Counted from the stretch's first letter, positions 3,269 to 57,480 are shown. The stretch: 64,000 nucleotides of DNA from Candidatus Aminicenantes bacterium (GCA_963732485.1 CAVSZS010000003.1:278087-342086), one strand, 5' to 3'. Translations and numbers: made by a program. The notes: a model not told the origin generated them from the letters alone.

Positions 3269-4474
3269 TCAATCCGCTTCCAGGACCGCCAGGAGGCGGC
3301 CGATGATTTTATCGGCGGCGTATTCGCTGCGGATCCGGTTCTGCAGGATCTTCGCCTTGGCTCGGGCCGCGACAGGGTCGTTGAAGACCCGGTGCATGGA
3401 TGAGACGGCTTCGGCGAACCGCGGTTCCGCCCAGAGTTGGCTTGGATCGAAAAAGCGGCGGTTGTCGTCGTCCCTGGCCGAAACCAAGTCGCAGCCAACA
3501 AGGTGGGCATGGTCCGGGTCGAGGTAATCCAGCTGCCCGCCCCAGTCCGTGACGATCACCGGATTGCCGAATGATGCGGCGTCAAAGACGCCCATGCCCC
3601 ATCCTTCGCCGTGGGTCAGGGAAAGGTAGCAATCGCCCCGCAGATGCAGGGCTGTGATTTCGTTTTCAGCCAATTCCGCGGTGATCAATTCGATCCGTCC
3701 GCCGTTCGGACGGCGGGCAACGATGCTCCTGAGCTGTCCGTCCGCGTCGGGGCGGAAGGTGACCTGCGGCGGGACGTGCAGGTTATTGCGCAGGCGGACG
3801 TAAAGGCTTTTAAAAAAAACGTGACGGGTCATCCGGGTATGGCGGTAGGCCTGGGGGAATGTCTTGATAACGAACAGGACCGGGTCTTCCCGGCGGAACG
3901 CTTCCAGGTAGCAGCGGATGGCCAGGTCCAGGTTCTTGCGCGCTGTCCAGGTTTCGATGGCATAGAAGACGAAAGGCCGGCCGCCTTGCCGCCGCAGCGG
4001 AGCGCTGGTTGCGGCAGTGGAAGCGATATGGGGGATGACCGTTGTCGGGATCGTGATGCCGCAGCGGACCAGCGTCTCCCGGTTCCAGCGCGATGGCACG
4101 AGCAAGTGGTCGATTCCCTCCAGGCAAGATGGCCAGAAAGACGGGATGCGGTCCGTTTCCCAGGCCGTGTAGCCGAAGATCCGCCGGCCCTTTTCCAAAG
4201 CTGCCCAGCGGGGAAAAAGTTCGGGAGGCGTGTGAATGATTACCGTGTCGTACTCCAGTGGGCGGTTGCAGGACGGGTCCAGCTCGGGGTCACCGATGGC
4301 CCTTCCGGTGAAGGGCTCCAGCCCCAGACCCCAGGAACTCCCCGGGACCATCGGGGTCCAGGTGAAGGGGATGCCGCGCTGGCGCAAGCCAAGCATGTAG
4401 CGCTTGGCGGCGGCAAAGAAGCCAAGCGCCCCATATAGGGAGATGTACTTGATGCCCCTGAGCACATCAGCCAC
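3269..4474 (-). CDS. glycosyltransferase family 1 (tandem paralog of 2125..3267)
   Basis: 401 aa: MADVLRGIKYISLYGALGFF ... EGWGMGVFDAASFGNPVIVTDWGGQLDYLDPD. Collinear similarity to its neighbour indicates tandem duplication. Confidence 0.65.
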   Translation of the reverse strand: MADVLRGIKYISLYGALGFFAAAKRYMLGLRQRGIPFTWTPMVPGSSWGLGLEPFTGRAIGDPELDPSCNRPLEYDTVIIHTPPELFPRWAALEKGRRIFGYTAWETDRIPSFWPSCLEGIDHLLVPSRWNRETLVRCGITIPTTVIPHIASTAATSAPLRRQGGRPFVFYAIETWTARKNLDLAIRCYLEAFRREDPVLFVIKTFPQAYRHTRMTRHVFFKSLYVRLRNNLHVPPQVTFRPDADGQLRSIVARRPNGGRIELITAELAENEITALHLRGDCYLSLTHGEGWGMGVFDAASFGNPVIVTDWGGQLDYLDPDHAHLVGCDLVSARDDDNRRFFDPSQLWAEPRFAEAVSSMHRVFNDPVAARAKAKILQNRIRSEYAADKIIGRLLAVLEAD

Positions 4475-8935: not shown

Positions 8936-9084
8936 GGGTCATGCACAATACCGATTTTTCGGTTTTTCATGAAGGCGCTTGGGGGAAAAAATAAAATACG
9001 GTTTCGGTCCATGCAAAAAGGATTTTAGAAAGTATTGACGAAAATTGCAAGATGCGCGTCGCCCGGCGCAGGCCTAGCGCCTTA

Positions 9085-9195
9085 GCTTTACTTTTGCCTT
9101 TTGCCTTCGTTTCTTCAATCGCCGTAAATTCTGGTGCTCTTCTCTAACTTTTGTCTTTTCTTGCCGTACACCGTCTAGCGTGTACCGTCTACGCT
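9085..9195. repeat. intergenic heptamer-repeat element, copy a (CTTTACTTTTGCCTTTTGCC ... CTTTTCTTGCCGTACACCGTCTAGCGTGTACCGTCTACG)
   Basis: Shares the CTTTTGCC heptad run and the CTTGCCGT(A/C)..ACCGTCTACCG core with the elements at 52968-53046 and 57148-57220. Contains the small palindrome GTACAC-N8-GTGTAC. Lies between the atpK stop and the glycan operon start. Confidence 0.5.
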
Positions 9196-16350: not shown

Positions 16351-16407
16351 GACTGAATTTTAGGGGAAGCGGCGATTCCTGTCAACCCTGAGCTCGATGC
16401 CAAGATT

Positions 16408-16503
16408 GTGAAAAGTGATCAGTGAAAAGTGAAAGGTGAAGGCAATGGAACGAACGATCGCTTTACTGCTGTTTCATTTCACTTTTTACTTTTCACTATT
16501 CAC
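16408..16503. repeat. inverted heptamer-repeat element (GTGAAAA x5 arm / TTTTCAC arm around a ~30-nt core)
   Basis: Left arm GTGAAAAGTGATCAGTGAAAAGTGAAAGGTGAAGG (16408-16442). Right arm TCATTTCACTTTTTACTTTTCACTATTCAC (16474-16503) is its imperfect reverse complement. The right arm overlaps the last 5 codons and stop of the Fe-S gene, and the element sits upstream of atpE. Confidence 0.6.
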
Positions 16504-17634
16504 TTGTCTTTTAAAGATATCACTAATGAAATAAACAGACACGTCGAGGTTTTCTTTCAGTTGCATGTAACATCCCGGGCAGGAGGTGACCACGGCGGCG
16601 GCGCCCAGTTCGTCGAGCCGCGCCGATTTTTTATTCAGGATCTTTTTCGAAGTCGATGGGAAGCCCACCTTGAAGATGCCGCCGAAGCCGCAGCACAAGG
16701 CGGAGTCGTCGTCGCGAAAGCGCTCGCCGAACTGCTCCAGGAAATGGCGCGCCTCTTTTTGCAGCTTCAGCGATTTCAGGTTGTGGCAGGGGTCGTGATA
16801 CGTGAACGCTCCCTGGAAGCGATCGGCGAAGCGCGGGTCGATCGCGGCCGAGGAGCAGTGGCGGAACATGAAGTCGCCCAGCTCGAATACCTCGATCCCG
16901 GGCAGATCGTAGTATTTTCGGAAAGCCAGCACGCCGGTGGAGCATGGCGCGACGATGCGCTTGAAGCGGAATTTCCTGAACACGGCCGCGTTTTTCTTTT
17001 TCAGCGCGGCGAACTTCTCGCCCCAGCCCTGCGAGAGATAGGGGAAGCCGCAGCATTGCAGCCCCGGCGGGTAGAGGACGCTGAAGCCCTGCTTTTCCAG
17101 GAGCGTCTTGATGTCGATCGTGCGCTGCGGGTAGAAGTAGGTGAAGACGCAGCCCGGGAAGAGCAGAATGTCGTATTCCTTGCCCGGGTCGCCGCCGCTG
17201 ATCTTTTTCAGGTCGGCTTTTTGCATCGCGGGCAGGGAAAGCCTTCTCTTCAGCGGCGTGCGCGCCAGGAGGCGCGGCAGCCAGAGGACCCGGCGCAGGA
17301 TGAACTCCTGGTAGAAAAACAGGGCGGTCTTCTTCAGCCAGGGGATGCGCTTTCCCGCCGCGGCGTGGTTGCGCTGCTCGATCATCATGCGGGTGAACTC
17401 GACCCCCTGCGGGCAGGCGTGCTCGCAGCCGCCGCAGACCAGGCACTGGTAGAGCAGGGAGCGGTTGCGCGCGTTGGGCGCCAGGCGGCCGTCGGCCAGG
17501 GCCTTGGCCAGGTTGACCTTGCCGCGCGGCGAGTTCGGTTCCGTGAGCTCGGCCTGGTAGACCGGGCAGGCCGACTGGCAGGTGCCGCAGTCGGCGCAGA
17601 GCTTGGCGATCTCGCTGATGGTTTTTTCAGCCAT
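16486..17634 (-). CDS. (Fe-S)-binding oxidoreductase subunit with two 4Fe-4S ferredoxin motifs and two CCG domains (GlcF/GlpC/LutA-like)
   Basis: CADCGTCQSACPV and CLVCGGCEHACPQG clusters, then two CCG(F) cysteine-rich domains (LQCCGFPYL, LCCGFGGI ... TSCPGC). Confidence 0.7.
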   Translation of the reverse strand: MAEKTISEIAKLCADCGTCQSACPVYQAELTEPNSPRGKVNLAKALADGRLAPNARNRSLLYQCLVCGGCEHACPQGVEFTRMMIEQRNHAAAGKRIPWLKKTALFFYQEFILRRVLWLPRLLARTPLKRRLSLPAMQKADLKKISGGDPGKEYDILLFPGCVFTYFYPQRTIDIKTLLEKQGFSVLYPPGLQCCGFPYLSQGWGEKFAALKKKNAAVFRKFRFKRIVAPCSTGVLAFRKYYDLPGIEVFELGDFMFRHCSSAAIDPRFADRFQGAFTYHDPCHNLKSLKLQKEARHFLEQFGERFRDDDSALCCGFGGIFKVGFPSTSKKILNKKSARLDELGAAAVVTSCPGCYMQLKENLDVSVYFISDIFKRQVNSEK

Positions 17635-18907: not shown

Positions 18908-19723
18908 TTATGAAATCTTCAACCTCTTTTCAATCTCGCTGCCGTCCAGGTTGTACAGCGCATCCAGGAACTGCACCTGCAGGCTGCCGGGCCCGGACGA
19001 TTTTTCGGCGGCGATCTCGCCGGCAATGCCCATCACGGCCATGGCGGCGGCAGTGGCCCTGAAAAAGTCGGGCTCGACGGCGGCGAAGGCGCCGCACAGC
19101 GCCGTGGCCGTGCAGCCCAGTCCGGTGACCTTCGGCATCAGCGCGTGGCCGTTCCTGATCAAAACCATTTTATCCTTGTGAATGATGGTATCGGTTTCGC
19201 CGCTGACGCATACCACGCCGCCCAGCTGCTGGCTCAGGTGACGGGCGCTGTCCATGGCGGCTTCGGTGGCGGAAGCGCTGTCAACGCCCCTGGTTTTTGC
19301 CGAATCGTCAACCATGGCCATGATCTCCGAGGCGTTGCCGCGCACGATGGCCGGTGGCACGGTTTGGATCAGCTCGCGGACCGTTCGCGTGCGGTAGGGG
19401 GTGGCGCCGGCGCCGACGGGGTCGAGCACGATGGGGATGCCTTTGTTTTTGGCCCGGCGTGCGGCCTTGAACATCGCTTCCACCCAGTGGCCGCTCAAGG
19501 TGCCGATGTTGATGACCAGCGCCGTGGCGATGCCGACCATGTCCTCGACCTCCTCGCCGGCGTGGGCCATGACCGGCGAGGCGCCGACGGCCAGCAGGGC
19601 ATTGGCCGTCGAGTTCATGACCACGTAGTTGGTGATGTTGTGCACCAGGGGGGACTTGGTGCGCACGAGTTCCAGGTCTTCAATGATTTCCTTTGCGGTC
19701 AGCTTCATGATTCGCTCACTCAT
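18908..19723 (-). CDS. thiM: hydroxyethylthiazole kinase
   Basis: 271 aa, strong family match ([27 protein letters not shown] ... GTLS ... [13 protein letters not shown]). Convergent with thiE. Confidence 0.85.
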
Positions 19724-19730
19724 TACCTAA

Positions 19731-19821
19731 GTGAAAAGTGAAAAGTAAAAAGTAAAAAGTTAAAACCCGAGGAGTATTGCTCCGGGTTCTTACCTTTCAC
19801 TTTTCACTACTCACTTTTCAC
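19731..19821. repeat. inverted heptamer-repeat element (GTGAAAA-type) enclosing an intrinsic-terminator-like hairpin
   Basis: Left arm GTGAAAAGTGAAAAGTAAAAAGTAAAAAGTTAAAA. Core hairpin AACCCGAGGAGTATTGCTCCGGGTT. Right arm CTTACCTTTCACTTTTCACTACTCACTTTTCAC is the reverse complement of the left arm. On the minus strand the hairpin is followed by a T-rich run, giving a terminator for the upstream transporter gene. The element also abuts the thiM start. Confidence 0.6.
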
Positions 19822-19829
19822 AAAGGGCG

Positions 19830-20546
19830 TTATAGTCCTAAAAACTGAACTGCCAGCCCTGAAAGGAATATGGTGGCGCCGGCCATGGCGTGGGCGTAGC
19901 GCTCCAGGCGCCCCAGGCGCACGAAGCTCAGGCCCCAGGAGGAGAGGGAGATGATGGCCAGCATGGTGGCGATGGTGGCTACGGCGAAGACCGCGGCGAC
20001 GAGGACGACGCCGGCCATGCTGTGCTTGGCCGCCGGGTACATGATCAGCGGGATCAGCGGCTCGCAGGGGCCGAAAACGAAGAGGGTGAAGAGTATCCAG
20101 GGCGTGATGTTGGCTTTCGCCTTGCGTTCGTGAACATGAACGTGTTCGCTCTCGTGCTGGTGCAGGTGGTCGTGGACCGCGCCGTCGGCATGGGCGTGGG
20201 CGTGATTATGGGGGCGGTTCTTGAAGGCCCGGTGCAGCCCCCAGATGAGATAGGCGAAGCCGAAGCCGATGAACAGCCAGGCGGCGGCGTTGCCGCGCCA
20301 GGATTCGCTGGCCTCGAGCCGGTTGACGGCCAGGCCCAGGGCCAGGCCGATGAAGCCCAGCAGCACGGAGCTCATGACGTGGCCCAGGCCTGAGAAAAAA
20401 GCGATGGTCAGGGTTTTTCGCAGCGGCCATTGCCGGGCCTTGGCCATGGCGATGAAGGGCAGGTAGTGGTCGGGGCCGATCAGGGTGTGAAAGAAGCCCA
20501 GCGCCATCGCCGTCCCGGCCAGTATCCAGATTTCGTTGCTGATCAT
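19830..20546 (-). CDS. metal (Ni/Co-type) transporter with His-rich loop (NicO/RcnA-like membrane protein)
   Basis: 238 aa, about 6 TM segments, conserved HTLIGPDH in TM1 and a central loop HNHAHAHADGAVHDHLHQHESEHVHVHE. Family guess from these motifs only. Confidence 0.5.
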   Translation of the reverse strand: MISNEIWILAGTAMALGFFHTLIGPDHYLPFIAMAKARQWPLRKTLTIAFFSGLGHVMSSVLLGFIGLALGLAVNRLEASESWRGNAAAWLFIGFGFAYLIWGLHRAFKNRPHNHAHAHADGAVHDHLHQHESEHVHVHERKAKANITPWILFTLFVFGPCEPLIPLIMYPAAKHSMAGVVLVAAVFAVATIATMLAIISLSSWGLSFVRLGRLERYAHAMAGATIFLSGLAVQFLGL

Positions 20547-32215: not shown

Positions 32216-32346
32216 GGAGGGATTATAAGCCCAAGGCCGGTGATTTTCCAGCGCGGTCAACAGAAAGTGTTAGTGTTTTGGATTCGTGAGGTTTGAAACT
32301 TTAGATTTATTCGGAATCTGGGAATAGCGTCTTTTCGCGCCACATG

Positions 32347-33345
32347 TCACTCGTTACGCGTCACGAAGCTCTTTCTATTTCTTAATTTCTCTTTCCACTC
32401 GGGTATGAGATGCCGGGGCCGCTTGCCGGCCAGCGCCTGGCGCACGGCCTCGACGGTCATCAGCGCCATCTGCCGCCGCGTTTGCCGGGTGGCGCTGCCC
32501 AGGTGCGGCAGGAGCACCACGTTCGCCAGGCTGCGCAATTTTTCGCTGACGGCCGGCTCGTTCTCGTAGACGTCAAGGCCGGCGCCGAAGAGCTCGCGCT
32601 TCTCGAGGGCCGCGGCCAGGGCTTCCTCGTCCATCAGCGGTCCGCGGGCGGTGTTGATGAAGATGGCGTCCTTTTTCATCAGGGCGAAGACGTCGCGGCC
32701 GAACAGGTGGCGCACGCTCGGCGAATAGGGCAGGTGCAGCGAGACGACGTCGGCGCTGCGGATCAGCTCCAGGAATGTGACGCGGGCGAAGCCGTACTTT
32801 TCCTCGATGCCCGGCTTGGCGCCGCGCGAATAAAAGAAGACCTTCATGCCGTGGGCGCGAGCGCGCAGGGCCACGGCCAGGCCGATACGCCCCATGCCCA
32901 CGATGCCCAGGATGGCGCCGTTCAGCTCCTTGCCCAGCAGCAGGCCGGCCTGCCAGCCGCTGAAGCCGCCGGAGCGGACCAAGGCGTCGCCCTCGACCAG
33001 GCGCCGCGCCACGGCGAGAATCAGGGCCATGGCCAGGTCGGCGGTGGCGTTGGTCAGGACGTCTGGAGTGTGGGTGACCAGCACGTTGCGCTCCAGGGCA
33101 CGGCCGACGTCGATGTTGTTGTAGCCGACGGCGAAATTGGCGATGACCTTCAGCTTGGGCATGGCGTTGATGGCCGCGGCGTCAATGGGGTCGGAGAGAA
33201 AGCTGATCAGGGCGGCGGCGTCGGGGTGGCGCCGGCAGCAGGAGGCCAGGCCGCCCTCGTCGTCGGCGATCAGCAGCTGGAATTCGCGGCGCAGGCGCTC
33301 AACGGCGTCGTCGTGGTAGCGGTGGGCGAGAATGACTTTTTTCAT
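32347..33345 (-). CDS. D-isomer-specific 2-hydroxyacid dehydrogenase (glyoxylate/hydroxypyruvate reductase-like)
   Basis: ORF trimmed to MKKVILAHRY. NAD motif GIVGMGRIGLAVA and the catalytic region NTARGPLMDEEAL...LDVYENEP. Confidence 0.8.
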   Translation of the reverse strand: MKKVILAHRYHDDAVERLRREFQLLIADDEGGLASCCRRHPDAAALISFLSDPIDAAAINAMPKLKVIANFAVGYNNIDVGRALERNVLVTHTPDVLTNATADLAMALILAVARRLVEGDALVRSGGFSGWQAGLLLGKELNGAILGIVGMGRIGLAVALRARAHGMKVFFYSRGAKPGIEEKYGFARVTFLELIRSADVVSLHLPYSPSVRHLFGRDVFALMKKDAIFINTARGPLMDEEALAAALEKRELFGAGLDVYENEPAVSEKLRSLANVVLLPHLGSATRQTRRQMALMTVEAVRQALAGKRPRHLIPEWKEKLRNRKSFVTRNE

Positions 33346-50374: not shown

Positions 50375-50504
50375 TTTTCCTCGGTTCGAACGGTCTTGCG
50401 GAGCCCCTTAATCATAACCCAAAACCGTCACGATTTCAACGGCCAATGGGTTTTTGCACCGGCGCCGGTTTGCTTTCCGCAGCGGCCTTCATGTACTATC
50501 GGGC

Positions 50505-52848
50505 ATGCGCGATATTTTCACCCCCGTCTTTCTCCTGGCGCTGGCCGCGCTTTTCCTGGCCGACGGCTGCGGGGCGGCGCCGTTCCTGGCGCGGCCGCTG
50601 GCGCTGCTGGCCTTCGCCCTGTTCCTGGCCCTATTCTTCCTGAAAAAATACCGCGCCGCCTATCCGGCAATCGCCGCCTGCGCCGCCCTGCTGCTCGTTG
50701 GCTCCTTCCTGGGCGCCAAAAGCGATTTTGCCGACGGTCCGGGCTTCGAAGTCGCGCCCGGCGAGTACGTCACCATCAGCGGTCGGCTTCTCGCTTTTCC
50801 GGAAATCGGCAACGGCCGCTCGCTGCTGCTGCTCCGCGCTTCCGCCTTCGCCTGGCCGGGGCGCCGCGTCGAGCGCGCGCTGAATGTCCGCGTGGTGGTG
50901 AGCGGCGACTGCCGCGAATTCCGCCGCGGCGACCGGGTCGAGATCGCTGCCCGCCTCGACCCGCGGCAGGTGAACCGCAATTTTTTCCCCAACCCGTACG
51001 AGAACTACCTGCTCTACAAGAACATCCGTTTGTCGGCCTACAGCAAGTCGGCGCAACTGGCGCATGTGGTGCAGCGGGGGAATGTCTTCTGGAGCGTCAT
51101 CGGCGCCTGGCGCGGCCGCGTGCGCCGGGCCATCGAGGGGCGCTACCTGGAAGGCGGCGTGCTGCGGCCGCCGGGAGTGTTTCTTGAAGCCACGCTGCTC
51201 GGCGACCGCGGCCGCCTGGAAAACGGGGAACAGGAGGTGCTGATCGGCAGCGGCGTCTTCCACCTGCTGGCCATCTCCGGGGCCAACATTGCCATCCTGG
51301 CCATGGTGTCGCTGCTGCTGTGCCGCTGGCTGCGCTTCTCCATCAGGCTGCGCTATGCCGTCACGGCGCTGCTGCTCCTCCTCTTCCTGGCGCTGTCCGG
51401 ATTCGATATCTCGGCCGAGCGCGCCGTGCTCATGGCGCTGCTGGTCTTTGCCGGGCGCGTCTGGTTCCTGGACGTGGAGCCCGCCAACATCATCTCATTC
51501 TGCGGCTTGCTGCTGCTGGCCCTCAACCCGGCGCAGTTCCTCGATCCCGGCTTCGCCCTGACCTTCGCCCTCACCGCCGCCATTCTCGCCGGCCGCCGCC
51601 TCTTCCTGCCCGGTCTGCGCCGGCTGCCGCGCTGGGCGGCCGAGCTGTTGTCGGCGAACCTGTCGGCGGCGCTCATGGCGCTGCCCCTGTCGCTGTACTA
51701 CTTCCAGCGCTACGCCTTTTCCGGCTTCTTCAGCGGCCTGCTGCTGGCGCCGCTGGCCGCCGTGGTCACCGTCTGCGGCGTTGTCCTGCTGCTGCTGGCC
51801 TGGCTGCCGGCAGCGGTCGCCACCCTGGCGTTGCTGCCCGCCGGCATCTGCCTCGACGCGTTCTTCGCCGCCAGCCGCTGGATATACGACCATGCCGCCC
51901 TGGGCGTCTTCCGTCCCGCGCCGCCGCTATGGCTGCTGGCAGTGATCGGCGTGTCGTTCTTCACCGTTTCCCGCCCCTGGCTGAAATGGCGCGCGCGGGC
52001 GGCAACGGCGCTGCTGCTGGCGGCGCTGCTCTGTTATATCTCGTTCTCCGCCGCCTTTGTACCGGCCCGGCCGCCTCGAGGTCTACTTCCTCGACGTCGG
52101 TCACGGCGACGCGGTGGTGGCGGTCTTTGCCAACGGCGACGCCCTGCTGGTCGACGGCGGTGGCGCCAGTTTTTCCGATTTTCAGGTCGGCCGGCGCCTG
52201 GTACTGCCTTTCCTGCTGCAAAAAAGGATCCGCGTGCGCTGGGCGGCCGCGACCCACTACCACCCCGACCACGCCCGGGGGCTGGCGGAGATCCTCGCCA
52301 TCCTGAAGCCCGAGGAACTGTGGCTCGCTTCCGCCGCCAAAGACGATGAGCATTACCGGCGCCTGCTGGCCGCCAGGCCGGAGAAGACGCGGCTGAGAGA
52401 GATCCGGCGGGGCTTCGTCACGCATGTCGGCGCCGGTTCGATCGCCTGTCTTTCTCCCCGGCATTTCATTCATGCTGCCAAATCCGGGAACAACCACTCC
52501 CTGGTCCTGCGCGTTGCCGACGGCCAGGCTTCTTTCCTGCTCCCCGGCGATATCGAGAAGGAGAGCGAATCCGAACTCGTCGGCGAGACCGCTTCCGGGC
52601 TGGCGGCTTCTGTTTTAAAACTTCCCCACCACGGCTCACGCACTTCCTCGTCGGCTCCTTTCCTTGACGCGGTCCGGCCCCGGGTGGCGGCGATCTCCCT
52701 GGCGGCGCAGAACGCCTACGGCTTTCCCCATCGCGAGGTCATCGAGCGCCTCAAGGAGCGCGGCATCAGATGGCTGAGCACGGACAGAAGAGGCGGCATC
52801 ATGATCGCGTCAGCGCCCGCGGGGCTTGAAATCGAAGTGTCGAAGTAA
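50505..52848 (+). CDS. comEC: DNA internalization competence protein ComEC/Rec2; apparent frameshift near 52060-52075
   Basis: Frame A (50505-) encodes the DUF4131 and Competence multi-TM domains (...VFHLLAISGANIAILA...), then turns into Arg/Gly junk after ...AAFVPARPP. Frame B from 52057 encodes the metallo-beta-lactamase domain YRPGRLEVYFLDVGHGDA...HYHPDHARG...LKLPHHGSRTS. Joined they give about 780 aa of standard ComEC architecture. Confidence 0.7.
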
Positions 52849-52869
52849 AAAAAATATTATCGAACTTAA

Positions 52870-53046
52870 GTGACAAGTGACGAGTGACGAGTGACAAGCG
52901 GCAAGCATTAGTCGATCTTGGATCCAGATCTTCTTTCCTGCTCAATAACATTCGCCAAGTGTTTTTTCTTCACTTTTGCCTTTTTACTTTTGCCTTTTGC
53001 CTTTTCTTGCCGTCTACCGTCTACCGTACACCGAGTGCTGTTTTCT
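52870..53046. repeat. composite heptamer-repeat element, copy b (GTGACAA/GTGACGA x5, spacer, then CTTCACTTTTGCC-heptads-CTTGCCGTCTACCGTCTACCGTACACCGAGTGCTGTTTTC)
   Basis: Left GTGACAAGTGACGAGTGACGAGTGACAAGCGGCAAGC (52870-52906). Right 52968-53046 matches 57148-57220 almost exactly at both ends, with extra internal heptads TTTTTAC/TTTTGCC and a duplicated GTCTACC. Confidence 0.6.
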
Positions 53047-53104
53047 TACTTTTTCCTTTCAAACTCCTCTTGACTCCTCCCCTCTCCCTCCATACAATCG
53101 ACGG

Positions 53105-54331
53105 ATGATGAAAAGCAAATTCTTTTTACTGGCCGTAATCCTGGCTTCGGCGGCAAGGCTGCCGGCCGCGGACAAGGCCTATCAGATCACCGAACTGCGC
53201 CCTGTCGTTGGCAACGGTGTGCAGTTGATCCTGCGCGACCTGGAAATCGAAGGCAAGCAGCTGCAGCTGGTCGTCTACGACCGCGACCGCCTGATCGACC
53301 TGGCCGCGGCCGAGGAAATCCCGGCGACCCGCGCCCGTAAGGGTGATATCCTTTTCCTCGGCAAGAGCAACGGTTCGGCCACGCAGATGATCATCACCCC
53401 GGGGCGCTCCGTACACCCCAAGCTGGCCAATGGCCAGCCCGGGGAGGCGAAGACCATCAACGAGCTCAGCCGCCGGCTGGCGGCCGAGACGGGCGCGAAC
53501 GCGCCGGTTGCGGCCGGGCGTGAAGCGGCCCCAACAACCGCTTTGAGCGCCGAACTGGATCGCGTGCGCCGCTCCTTTCTCTTCGTCCTCGAGTTCGCCC
53601 TGGGCGCGCCGTTCACCGCGTCCCAGGAGCGACTTATCCTCGACCAATTCAGTTCCGGCTGGTGGGCGGCCAAGAGCGCCGCTGAAAGGAAGACCTTCGG
53701 CCAGTATCCGCAGGTCGTGGCCTGGATCATGAAGGCGGGGCAGCGCGATCTTGAAGAGATGCGCCGGACCCTCGAGGAGACGACTCGCCAATGGTTGAAG
53801 GAGTCGCCCGCCTCCGACCCGGTGGTCGCCATGATCCGCGCCCGGCTTGCCGAACGCGGGCGGACGATCATCGCCGGCGAGCCGCCGCTCTCCGAGATGG
53901 CCGCCGCCGCCTTCTGCGAGCTCTATGCCTTCTCCCGCCTCCTGCGCCGAAACGGGGCGGCGCTGCCGGCGCAGCTTGAGGGCGCCGACGTGGCCGCGGC
54001 GCGCCGCGAGCTGCTGCGCGCCTGGCCCGGATTTTCCATTGCCGAGCGCGGCCAGGTGGCCACGGCGCCGGGGTTGTGGCTGGTGCTGCGCGCCCTGGTC
54101 GTCCACGGCGACCCCGGAGAGCGCGAAACGGCTCGCCGCCGGCTTCTTGCCGTTTCGGAAGCGGATGCCCGGACCGGCCAGGCCCGCGCGGCTTCGGGTG
54201 GCAAAGGCGACGATGCCGTGTCGGCCATGCTGAAGCACAACGTGCTGATGAACATCCGCCAGCAGACCTTCAACACCTACATGTGGAGCCGCGGCTTCAA
54301 TTACCAGCCGGCAACCGGCAAGATGTGGTGA
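53105..54331 (+). CDS. hypothetical secreted protein
   Basis: ORF trimmed to MMKSKFFLLAVILASAARLPAADKA (signal peptide), 408 aa. Ala/Arg/Glu-rich and helical, with no recognised motif. Confidence 0.4.
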   Translation: MMKSKFFLLAVILASAARLPAADKAYQITELRPVVGNGVQLILRDLEIEGKQLQLVVYDRDRLIDLAAAEEIPATRARKGDILFLGKSNGSATQMIITPGRSVHPKLANGQPGEAKTINELSRRLAAETGANAPVAAGREAAPTTALSAELDRVRRSFLFVLEFALGAPFTASQERLILDQFSSGWWAAKSAAERKTFGQYPQVVAWIMKAGQRDLEEMRRTLEETTRQWLKESPASDPVVAMIRARLAERGRTIIAGEPPLSEMAAAAFCELYAFSRLLRRNGAALPAQLEGADVAAARRELLRAWPGFSIAERGQVATAPGLWLVLRALVVHGDPGERETARRRLLAVSEADARTGQARAASGGKGDDAVSAMLKHNVLMNIRQQTFNTYMWSRGFNYQPATGKMW

Positions 54332-57114: not shown

Positions 57115-57147
57115 GTCAAGGATCTTTCCCGAGTCCGGAGATCGCAA

Positions 57148-57220
57148 GTGCTTTTTCTTCACTTTTGCCTTTTCTTGCCGTAAGCCGTCAACCGTCTACC
57201 GTACACCGAGTTCTGTTTTC
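57148..57220. repeat. heptamer-repeat element, copy c (GTGCTTTTTCTTCACTTTTGCCTTTTCTTGCCGTAAGCCGTCAACCGTCTACCGTACACCGAGTTCTGTTTTC)
   Basis: Shares a 25-nt 5' block and a 29-nt 3' block with copy b (1 mismatch each). Lies between trpF and a small Cys-rich ORF. Confidence 0.6.
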
Positions 57221-57285
57221 CGCAAAGCTGCTTGAATTATTTGTCAGGGCAGGGTAAAGTTGGGTAATTGCGAGGGGGGGGGACA

Positions 57286-57480
57286 ATGAAGAGAAAAACG
57301 TACCAATGTGAAAAATGCCGAAAAGAAAAAACGATTCGGCAAGGCGAAAAAATACCCGGTTGCTGCGGCTTACCCATGACGCTCAAACTGGAAAGTTGCA
57401 CCAAGCCATTTGACGCCGAGACGGCGCGCGCCAATGCCGCTGACGAACCCTGCGACGACGGGACGGACCGGAACCAGTAG
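57286..57480 (+). CDS. small Cys-rich hypothetical protein (64 aa, zinc-ribbon-like)
   Basis: GAGGGGGGGG RBS, then MKRKTYQCEKCRKEKTIRQGEKIPGCCGLPM... with a CxxC and a CC pair. Sits 90 nt upstream of korA. Confidence 0.35.
   Translation: MKRKTYQCEKCRKEKTIRQGEKIPGCCGLPMTLKLESCTKPFDAETARANAADEPCDDGTDRNQ

Follow-up and report, generated by a model that had tools for sequence, protein, structure and literature searches.

Convergent pairs of heptanucleotide repeat arrays have been described in Xanthomonas, where X. campestris carries 186 GGGAATC arrays and 70 convergent pairs (Rehm et al. 2015, PMC4692102), and where X. campestris and X. axonopodis contain 70-75 convergent two-array cases per genome, mostly of four units (PMC4692102). 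These pairs are 89-93% intergenic and are found at a mean of 28 nt past the upstream ORF, with 160 nt left to the following one; they are transcribed, rare between divergent genes and without an assigned function, and the arrays vary in both length and sequence between close relatives (PMC4692102). The class 3 repeats of G. metallireducens are pairs of 5 x MTYCTGA arrays regarded as putative global-regulator sites, for which binding of an IHF/HU-type protein was proposed without test (Aklujkar et al. 2009, PMC2700814). TAACTGA repeats, reported from marine Beggiatoaceae, Cyanobacteria and Bacteroidetes as 169 direct sets and one indirect set, have been proposed to bind S1, Csp or CsrA (MacGregor 2015, PMC4679880). 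Heptanucleotide repeats are also, according to Mrazek 2007 as summarised in PMC4679880, the most over-represented class of long SSR in many bacteria, where they are ascribed to polymerase slippage. The literature search returned nothing on the GTGAAAA unit studied here, on its spread across phyla or on the arm-order rule described below, and nothing specific on repeats in Aminicenantes or on links between heptamers and terminators.

Three other types of element provide a background for comparison. The cyanobacterial STRR heptamers are, like the TAACTGA type, intergenic tandem heptamers with a patchy occurrence across phyla. Bidirectional intrinsic terminators combine an A-rich 5' flank, a stem-loop and a U-rich 3' flank that can be read on both strands, and are found just past stop codons. 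REP, BIME and REPIN sequences (Newbury, Higgins; Bertels & Rainey) are imperfect extragenic palindromes located at gene 3' ends or between cistrons, the inverted doublets of which form long hairpins that protect upstream mRNA or cause partial termination; their families consist of near-identical copies, mobilised by RAYT transposases and sharing a conserved tetranucleotide head.

The stretch of DNA analysed here, 64 kb in length and referred to as the window, contains two elements, E1 (16408-16503) and E2 (19731-19821), each of about 95 bases and each composed of 4-5 GTGAAAA-like heptamers, a core and 4-5 TTTTCAC-like heptamers (Table 1). As in the convergent pairs described above, the arrays of both elements consist of 7-nt units, about 4-5 per array, on opposite strands and in convergent order around a spacer of variable length. 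An initial annotation had described the inverted heptamer repeat at E1, which the sequence bears out with a core of 33 nt, and had argued that its recurrence at E2 was not due to chance. All four arms present a period of 7 with 3.9-5.3 copies (TRF) and a G+C content of ~30-40%, against ~63% for the window, and E1 and E2 are the longest two inverted repeats of the 64 kb. In the minus-strand transcript, the left arm of E1 becomes the U-rich 3' arm and the right arm the 5' arm, which reads GTGAATA GTGAAAA GTAAAAA GTGAAAT. The two cores are unrelated; that of E2 is followed on the minus strand by UUUUAACUUUUUAC and is terminator-like. A two-unit 14-mer allowing up to 2 mismatches was matched 14 times in the window, versus 0.28 expected and with 0 of 100 shuffles reaching 14, and 13 of these 14 matches fall within E1 or E2. 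These counts and the folding results below, each set against shuffles, rule out chance or a low-complexity artefact for both elements. The identical element is present in independent JGI and NCBI assemblies.

Table 1. Positions of the heptamer elements, their parts and the neighbouring gene features in the window.
Feature	Position	Strand or reading	Description
CCG/4Fe-4S (Fe-S) gene	16486-17634	minus	carries CCG and 4Fe-4S domains
Fe-S gene 3' end, VNSEK*	16486-16503	minus	last five codons and stop (TAA 16486-16488), inside E1 arm
Promoter TTGACA-17-TAAAAT	16357-16385	minus	sigma-70-type, near-consensus (11/12)
E1 left arm	16408-16442	plus reading	GTGAAAA GTGATCA GTGAAAA GTGAAAG GTGAAGG; five units
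E1 core	16443-16475		33 nt (28 nt plus partial unit); weak internal stem-loop
E1 right arm	16476-16503	plus reading	ATTTCAC TTTTTAC TTTTCAC TATTCAC; four units
thiM (probable; hydroxyethylthiazole kinase) start	19706-19708	minus	22 nt after E2
E2 left arm	19731-19765	plus reading	GTGAAAA GTGAAAA GTAAAAA GTAAAAA GTTAAAA; five units
E2 core	19766-19786		21-nt G+C hairpin, CCCGAGGAG-TATTG-CTCCGGG
E2 right arm	19787-19821	plus reading	TTCTTAC CTTTCAC TTTTCAC TACTCAC TTTTCAC; five units
DsbD_2-family gene stop	19830-19832	minus	8 nt before E2 in the direction of transcription
E3	52868-53030	plus	arrays GTGACRA x4, CTTTTGC x5, CCGTCTA x3
E4	57140-57225	plus	second copy of the E3 right-hand module: CTTTTGC/CCGTCTA arrays and ACACCGAGTKCTGTTTTC
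E5	9040-9195	minus	reverse complement of the E3/E4 module: TAGACGG-type units, CAAGAAAAGACAAAAG

Folding of E1 as RNA yielded -38.9 kcal/mol (z -6.8) on the minus strand and -42.5 kcal/mol (z -5.7) on the plus strand, and folding of E2 yielded -56.0 kcal/mol (z -9.6) and -39.6 kcal/mol (z -6.6), respectively; 0 shuffles beat or equalled any of these folds on either strand, and the folds of E1 and E2 with DNA parameters were significant too (z -4.3 and -6.5). The arms pair on both strands (z -5.7 to -9.6), and the RNA stem of ~30 bp put forward in the initial annotation is recovered as a long, interrupted stem of 30-40 bp. E1 has a weak inner hairpin, and no U-tract comes after either full stem; the E2 core fits a terminator loosely, with a bulged G+C stem and then UUUUAACUUUUU, and a consensus terminator scan called neither element. 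A search of Rfam with E-values up to 10 returned only sub-threshold matches to animal and plant microRNA precursors, that is, generic hairpins, and on these grounds a known RNA family or riboswitch was rejected. Comparing the stability of the two strands in 21 co-directional pairs, the sense strand was the more stable in 11, the antisense strand in 9 and one was a tie (p = 0.8), and in the E1 family it is the antisense strand that has the more stable fold. Sense-strand G·U asymmetry, considered as a sign of RNA-level selection, was not found in these pairs. Given the lack of a sense-strand stability excess, RNA-level selection on the mRNA strand alone is not demonstrated.

The genes flanking E1 and E2 are all encoded on the minus strand and both elements lie just after minus-strand stop codons, a location that fits the terminator or RNA-stability role suggested at the outset. 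Downstream of E1 is a 211-aa ORF (atpE-like), the first of a V-type ATPase operon of which the A, B and c subunits were identified in the window and the D and I subunits were seen in a syntenic locus (L120). The promoter downstream of E1 is 22 nt from the element, its -10 box is separated from the ATG (16350) by 6 nt, which is a leaderless type of arrangement, and a promoter is conserved between E1 and the V-ATPase ATG in 5 of 5 orthologous loci. Because of this promoter, the operon transcript starts downstream of E1 and E1 falls outside the leader, so that the V-ATPase leader or attenuator role initially proposed for it is ruled out; judging from the promoter spacing, the operon mRNA is probably leaderless. 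The E1 hairpin is the sole structure in the spacer ahead of the conserved promoter. At E2, translation of thiM from the ATG at 19708 gives 266 aa, equal to the length called for the L123 orthologue. No promoter-like site was found between E2 and thiM, so that thiM must be transcribed through E2, which is thus no efficient terminator. A second promoter of leaderless type occurs at 53070-53107 (plus strand), where TTGACT-17-TACAAT is followed after exactly 6 nt by ATG, and the two promoters together suggest that leaderless mRNAs are common in the lineage of the window.

The window was compared with four syntenic loci (L120, L122, L123 and L124), giving a set of five genomes. The Fe-S protein itself has no entry on record, but its homologues are numerous; the best match with a name is from Candidatus Aminicenantes at 72% identity, and it is on this match that the probable assignment of the window to Aminicenantes is based. 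Nearly all of the homologues end in ...SDIFKK* at 376 aa; a protein of 382 aa ending in RQV(N/K)SEK* occurs only in the window, P0002 and P0009. Translation of the E1 right arm confirmed that it codes for the VNSEK* end of the Fe-S gene. This had been read as invasion of, or co-evolution with, a coding 3' end, and while the overlap is real its cause is simple: the window lineage lost the Fe-S stop codon and a 9-nt spacer, so that the ORF runs six codons into the array, which provides the TAA, and the protein is extended by 6 aa. In all five loci the promoter is retained, and a hairpin with heptamer arms separates its -35 box from the stop codon. L120 and L122 have the same element and core as E1 of the window, one arm of L120 being longer by exactly two units (14 nt). 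The L123 element has a 5' arm of GTGACAA GTGACGA GTGACCA GTGACAA and a 3' arm of TCGTCAC TCGTTAC TCGTCAC, which enclose a different G+C hairpin, and that of L124 consists of (GTGACGC)4 ... (GCGTCAC)4 around a 250-nt core that itself holds inverted CCAAATT-type heptamer arrays.

Upon alignment, the five 5' arms are in register with four units each, in which GTRA is invariant and positions 5-7 are lineage-specific. These positions covary between arms: AAA, CGA and CGC in the 5' arm are matched, each in its own orthologue, by TTT, TCG and GCG in the 3' arm. In the L123 version of E2 only GUGA and UCAC pair, and GTRA is retained where positions 5-7 are unpaired; this retention hints at sequence recognition and not structure alone. 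Pairwise identity of E1 is 92.7% for the window and L120, 93.8% for the window and L122, and 88.5% for L120 and L122. At four-fold sites of the adjacent gene the corresponding values are lower, at 70%, 86% and 67%, and the pace of E1 evolution is hence about that of first and second codon positions. In the gene tree, the nearest relative of the window is L123 (92.7% at four-fold sites), with L122, L124 and L120 successively more distant, whereas the element type groups the window with L122 and L120, and the final ~15 nt of the Fe-S gene co-segregate with the element type. The pattern is one of long stasis broken by wholesale replacement, probably through block recombination.

Two further candidates were discarded. 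A miniature mobile element (MITE), as had been suggested initially, is not supported, since the five-genome alignment shows no target-site duplication at the borders of the elements and the internal sequences, including the cores of E1 and E2, differ among elements. A phase-variable SSR was rejected because the array lies upstream of the -35 box and the 14-nt difference of L120 leaves the promoter and both ORFs intact.

The window harbours other heptamer elements. E3 lies 19 nt past the end of the ComEC gene and about 20 nt ahead of a promoter; it is not self-complementary and its fold is no better than that of shuffles (z -0.3). Its left array, GTGACAA GTGACGA GTGACGA GTGACAA, is essentially the same as the L123 E1 arm. 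The ComEC gene itself looks split, with DUF4131 and Competence domains in the ORF at 50454-52349 and the metallo-beta-lactamase domain in an overlapping ORF in another frame at 52057-52848 (whole region 50454-52848), which could reflect a frameshift, a pseudogene or an assembly error. E4 differs from E3 by a 14-nt (two-unit) indel and is found after the end of a PRAI (trpF-like) gene, where a TTGAAT-17-TAAAGT motif and a small ORF rich in Cys (57286-57480) lie just downstream of it. [quoted passage not shown] Since E5 is the reverse complement of the E3/E4 module, the module is used in both orientations relative to transcription. E3-E5 are non-palindromic and do not fold better than shuffles, and E1, E3, E4 and E5 each end ~15-25 nt upstream of a -35 box.

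Related arrangements were noted at several other sites. A degenerate TCAC-type arm, ATGTCAC TCGTTAC GCGTCAC, occurs in an A/T-rich spacer at 32340-32365 of the window and possibly represents a decayed element of the GTGACGC family. The L124 element (1874-2204) is a nested composite, with outer GTGACGC/GCGTCAC arms and an inner hairpin of CCAAATT-type and TTGGTGC-type heptamer arrays; its inner module and right arm are found again after the V-ATPase c-subunit gene of L120 (18540-18795), a site that is not orthologous, with 77% mean column identity over the alignment. A metagenome contig (WBZL01119228.1; L126, 440-740) carries two complete elements with GTGAAAG/GTGAAAA arms in direct tandem, and the near identity of their ~90-nt G+C-rich cores indicates duplication of the whole element beyond that of units. 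In L088, at 3849-3897, a near-perfect palindrome of GTGAAAG units is broken by NN in the assembly; such palindromes may cause assembly or masking trouble.

The distribution of the motif was assessed by scanning one genome per species with the pattern GTRAAAAGTRAAAAGTRAAA, which identified at least 119 genome stretches, so that E1 and E2 are not its sole occurrences. The phyla among the matches listed include Bacteroidota, Cyanobacteria, Acidobacteriota, Gemmatimonadota, Chloroflexota, Planctomycetota, Nitrospirota and Vulcanimicrobiota, and the GTGAAAA unit thus recurs in at least 8 phyla. Isolates were among the carriers, for example Terrimonas ginsenosidimutans, Sphingobacterium luzhongxinii, Alteromonas aquimaris, Photorhabdus cinerea and Moheibacter lacus. 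Among the matches listed, period-7 arrays number 219, against at most 27 for any other period from 4 to 12, and ~100 of them are additional to the seeded ones; the modal array has 4 units (301 arrays) and the spacers between paired arrays span 4-165 nt. At least 109 different heptamer unit families are present in the sampled loci, and at least 46 inverted heptamer pairs of many unit types were found (medians: length 95 nt, spacer 28.5 nt). The order of the arms among the matches listed is [GTGAAAA]n-core-[TTTTCAC]n in 28 cases and the reverse in 0. In the metagenome collection, a search for the reverse order gave 8 stretches, mostly 2-unit or spurious: one consists of two normal elements in tandem, three correspond to a single A/T-rich locus adjacent to a tRNA and two to one other locus, with only one presenting real arrays. 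Viral contigs yielded 1 versus 0 for the two orders, too few to be informative.

Inverted pairs among the matches listed lie at a median of 5 nt from the upstream stop codon, a distance that is indicative, as it stems from crude ORF calls in high-G+C DNA and is affected by the TGA/TAA contained in the units, which terminate any ORF entering an array. Within the same matches, 29 of 32 pairs have a gene 3' end on at least one side, and only 3 of 32 pairs and 16 of 139 single arrays (9-12%) lie between divergent genes, versus 20-24% expected. Single GTGAAAA arrays among these matches usually begin at the stop codon and read GUGAAAA in the mRNA sense in 37 cases and UUUUCAC in 12. An array followed by a G+C hairpin and a T-tract was seen in several foreign loci (e.g. 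L041, L083, L118, L112). A strict G+C hairpin with a T-tail right after the array was found in 8 of 160 arrays and 3 of 160 controls, with a small shift in z-score (p = 0.006), and the view of the arrays as extended flanks of canonical terminators, which these figures favour only weakly, was not retained.

We tentatively favour, at a little less than an even chance, the reading that E1 and E2 are bidirectional RNA hairpins that punctuate transcripts, as partial terminators or 3'-end barriers, and that are built and resized by 7-nt slippage. Transcription of either strand would produce 5'-(GUGAAAA)n - core - (UUUUCAC)n-3', in which a loop or small G+C hairpin joins an A-rich arm to a U-rich one, a layout that would amount to the A-tract, stem and U-tract of a bidirectional intrinsic terminator iterated every 7 nt. 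The interrupted stem of 30-40 bp would halt part of the RNA polymerase traffic, block 3'-to-5' exonucleases, or both, and may also be cut by RNase III. E1 would thereby insulate the V-ATPase promoter, parting the message of the Fe-S gene from the next transcription unit, and E2 would give differential expression of two co-transcribed genes (the DsbD_2-family gene and thiM), the likely modes being partial termination, a REP-like barrier to 3' exonucleases or RNase III processing. The arms would grow and shrink by replication slippage in 7-nt steps, while selection would maintain their complementarity.

Several observations speak for this hairpin reading. It explains the arm order, given that the reverse order would pair equally well and yet is unseen, the position at stop codons together with the depletion in promoter-only spacers, and the need for insulation right upstream of the conserved promoter at E1. 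Arm covariation and sequence constraint fit it, the exact 14-nt indels (L120 E1; E3 versus E4) count for slippage, the G+C cores with a U-rich run or T-tract (E2 and several foreign loci) count for a terminator, and the Xanthomonas pairs, by their position and transcription, offer a published parallel (PMC4692102). Against it count the weak core of E1 and full stems without a U-tract, the low number of arrays with a strict hairpin and T-tail (8/160), the absence of a sense-strand stability bias, the non-A/T units without a U-rich arm (GTGACGC in L124, GGGAATC in Xanthomonas) and the failure of E3-E5 to fold better than shuffles. The read-through of E2 required for thiM argues against efficient termination, and GTRA retention in the L123 E2 without pairing of positions 5-7 hints that it is not structure alone that is recognised.

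In an alternative that we regard as unlikely, the arrays would be sites for a putative oligomeric protein that reads GTRA/TYAC every 7 nt on single-stranded RNA, single-stranded DNA or duplex DNA, the hairpin being secondary to binding or competing with it, as in a regulated antiterminator, a nucleoid protein or a global regulator. The invariance of GTRA across all units of the orthologous 5' arms in the five loci, next to positions 5-7 that differ between lineages, and the pairing of the L123 E2 through GUGA/UCAC only, would be expected of such sites, as would E1 conservation beyond the needs of pairing; strict arm order fits a protein needing its motif on the first-transcribed arm, and the existence of the non-palindromic arrays E3-E5 and the four-unit mode shared by the sampled loci and Xanthomonas point the same way. 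HutP reads UAG-N4 triplets with a 7-nt period on the 5' side of a terminator, and by analogy may serve as a precedent. Also in favour of this alternative, binding by IHF/HU or a global regulator has been proposed for the paired heptamer arrays of Geobacter (PMC2700814), and binding by S1, Csp or CsrA for TAACTGA arrays (PMC4679880). The alternative is nonetheless hard to square with at least 109 unit families and with GTGAAAA in many phyla if there is one specific binder, places successive sites off one face of duplex DNA because of the 7-bp period, and has to accommodate the E3/E4 module in both orientations relative to transcription. A more specific version, which we consider highly doubtful, would have each arm carry about four GURA sites for a ring- or filament-forming ssRNA-binding protein that loads on the first-transcribed arm and decides whether the hairpin forms. 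Were it true, the hundreds of gene-end hairpins per genome would be jointly regulated terminators or antiterminators, in a genome-wide control of read-through of the HutP/TRAP type across many phyla.

Selfish or neutral origins, by which the palindromes would arise from 7-nt slippage and template-switch 'correction', or as REPIN/MITE-like DNA, and be tolerated just after genes, also appear improbable to us. Over-representation of heptanucleotide SSRs, ascribed to slippage (Mrazek 2007, as given in PMC4679880), the 14-nt indels and the lack of a strand bias in stability would all be expected under them, and so would the dispersal of modules at non-orthologous sites (the L124 core and L120 operon end; E3/E4/E5; the E3 left array and the L123 E1 arm) and the incongruence of element type and gene tree, with L123 differing and the outgroup L120 being the same, which indicates wholesale replacement or recombination. 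They do not account, however, for E1 evolving more slowly than four-fold sites over a large divergence, nor for a hairpin with 4-unit arms being kept at the same site in 5 of 5 genomes despite unit turnover; slippage or fold-back synthesis would yield both arm orders instead of the 28:0 seen among the matches listed, and the lack of target-site duplications and the unrelated cores of E1 and E2 do not suit mobile DNA. A role at the DNA level, in which A/T-rich palindromes would extrude as cruciforms or lagging-strand hairpins and work upstream of promoters as barriers or supercoil sinks, or else signal recombination or replication, seems very unlikely: although arms of about 30% G+C in a window of ~63% G+C, significant DNA folds (z -4.3 and -6.5), a stability symmetric between strands, as befits a duplex feature, and the ends of E1, E3, E4 and E5 about 15-25 nt upstream of a -35 box are in its favour, cruciform extrusion is disfavoured by the interruptions of the stems and by loops as large as 21-33 nt, no promoter adjoins E2, E3-E5 are non-palindromic, and symmetry leaves the arm order and the tight link to stop codons unexplained.

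Taken together, these analyses identify a real feature, the conserved members of a widespread class, for which transcript-end hairpins are the most likely explanation. Any explanation has to meet four constraints: the strict arm order, the presence of GTGAAAA in at least 8 phyla, the abutment on stop codons, and conservation or swapping at the orthologous site, where three lineages are conserved above the synonymous level and two close relatives have swapped units complementarily in both arms. If the elements are iterated bidirectional terminators or RNA-end protectors, then terminator predictors and operon maps of many uncultured phyla miss a class of signal; arrays that bind protein would instead point to a global layer of regulation that has gone unrecognised.

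Compared with known systems, E1 and E2 share with TAACTGA arrays an intergenic location, tandem heptamers in 2-6 or more copies and a patchy occurrence across phyla, but TAACTGA arrays are almost always direct and just upstream of starts, while E1 and E2 are inverted and just after stops. They resemble REP/BIME/REPIN sequences in being extragenic palindromes at gene ends and differ in that their arms are simple heptamer arrays; assignment to REP/REPIN, also raised in the initial annotation, was rejected because, in the 64 kb inspected, E1 and E2 have only heptamer arms in common and unrelated cores, and are not near-identical copies that include the spacer. The A-rich, stem and U-rich layout past stop codons is that of intrinsic terminators, and the E2 core with its U-rich run fits the canonical form loosely, yet the stems are long, A/U-rich and interrupted, the flanks are periodic arrays of 28-35 nt instead of a single tract of 7-9 nt, E1 is without a strong G+C stem and E2 must be read through for thiM. 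Geobacter class 3 repeats share arrays of about five heptamers on opposite strands, variable spacing, an intergenic location and many copies per genome, and differ in unit sequence. The Xanthomonas pairs share 7-nt units, convergent arrays, a position at gene 3' ends and rarity between divergent genes; their unit is G-rich and G-quadruplex-forming, whereas GTGAAAA is A/T-rich and without G4 potential, and the host phylum differs. E1 and E2 therefore belong to a described and functionally unexplained class, the convergent heptanucleotide-repeat pairs, for which they are ordinary; unlike in Xanthomonas, arm covariation and sequence constraint are documented here at one orthologous site, and these comparative data sharpen the question of the function of the class.
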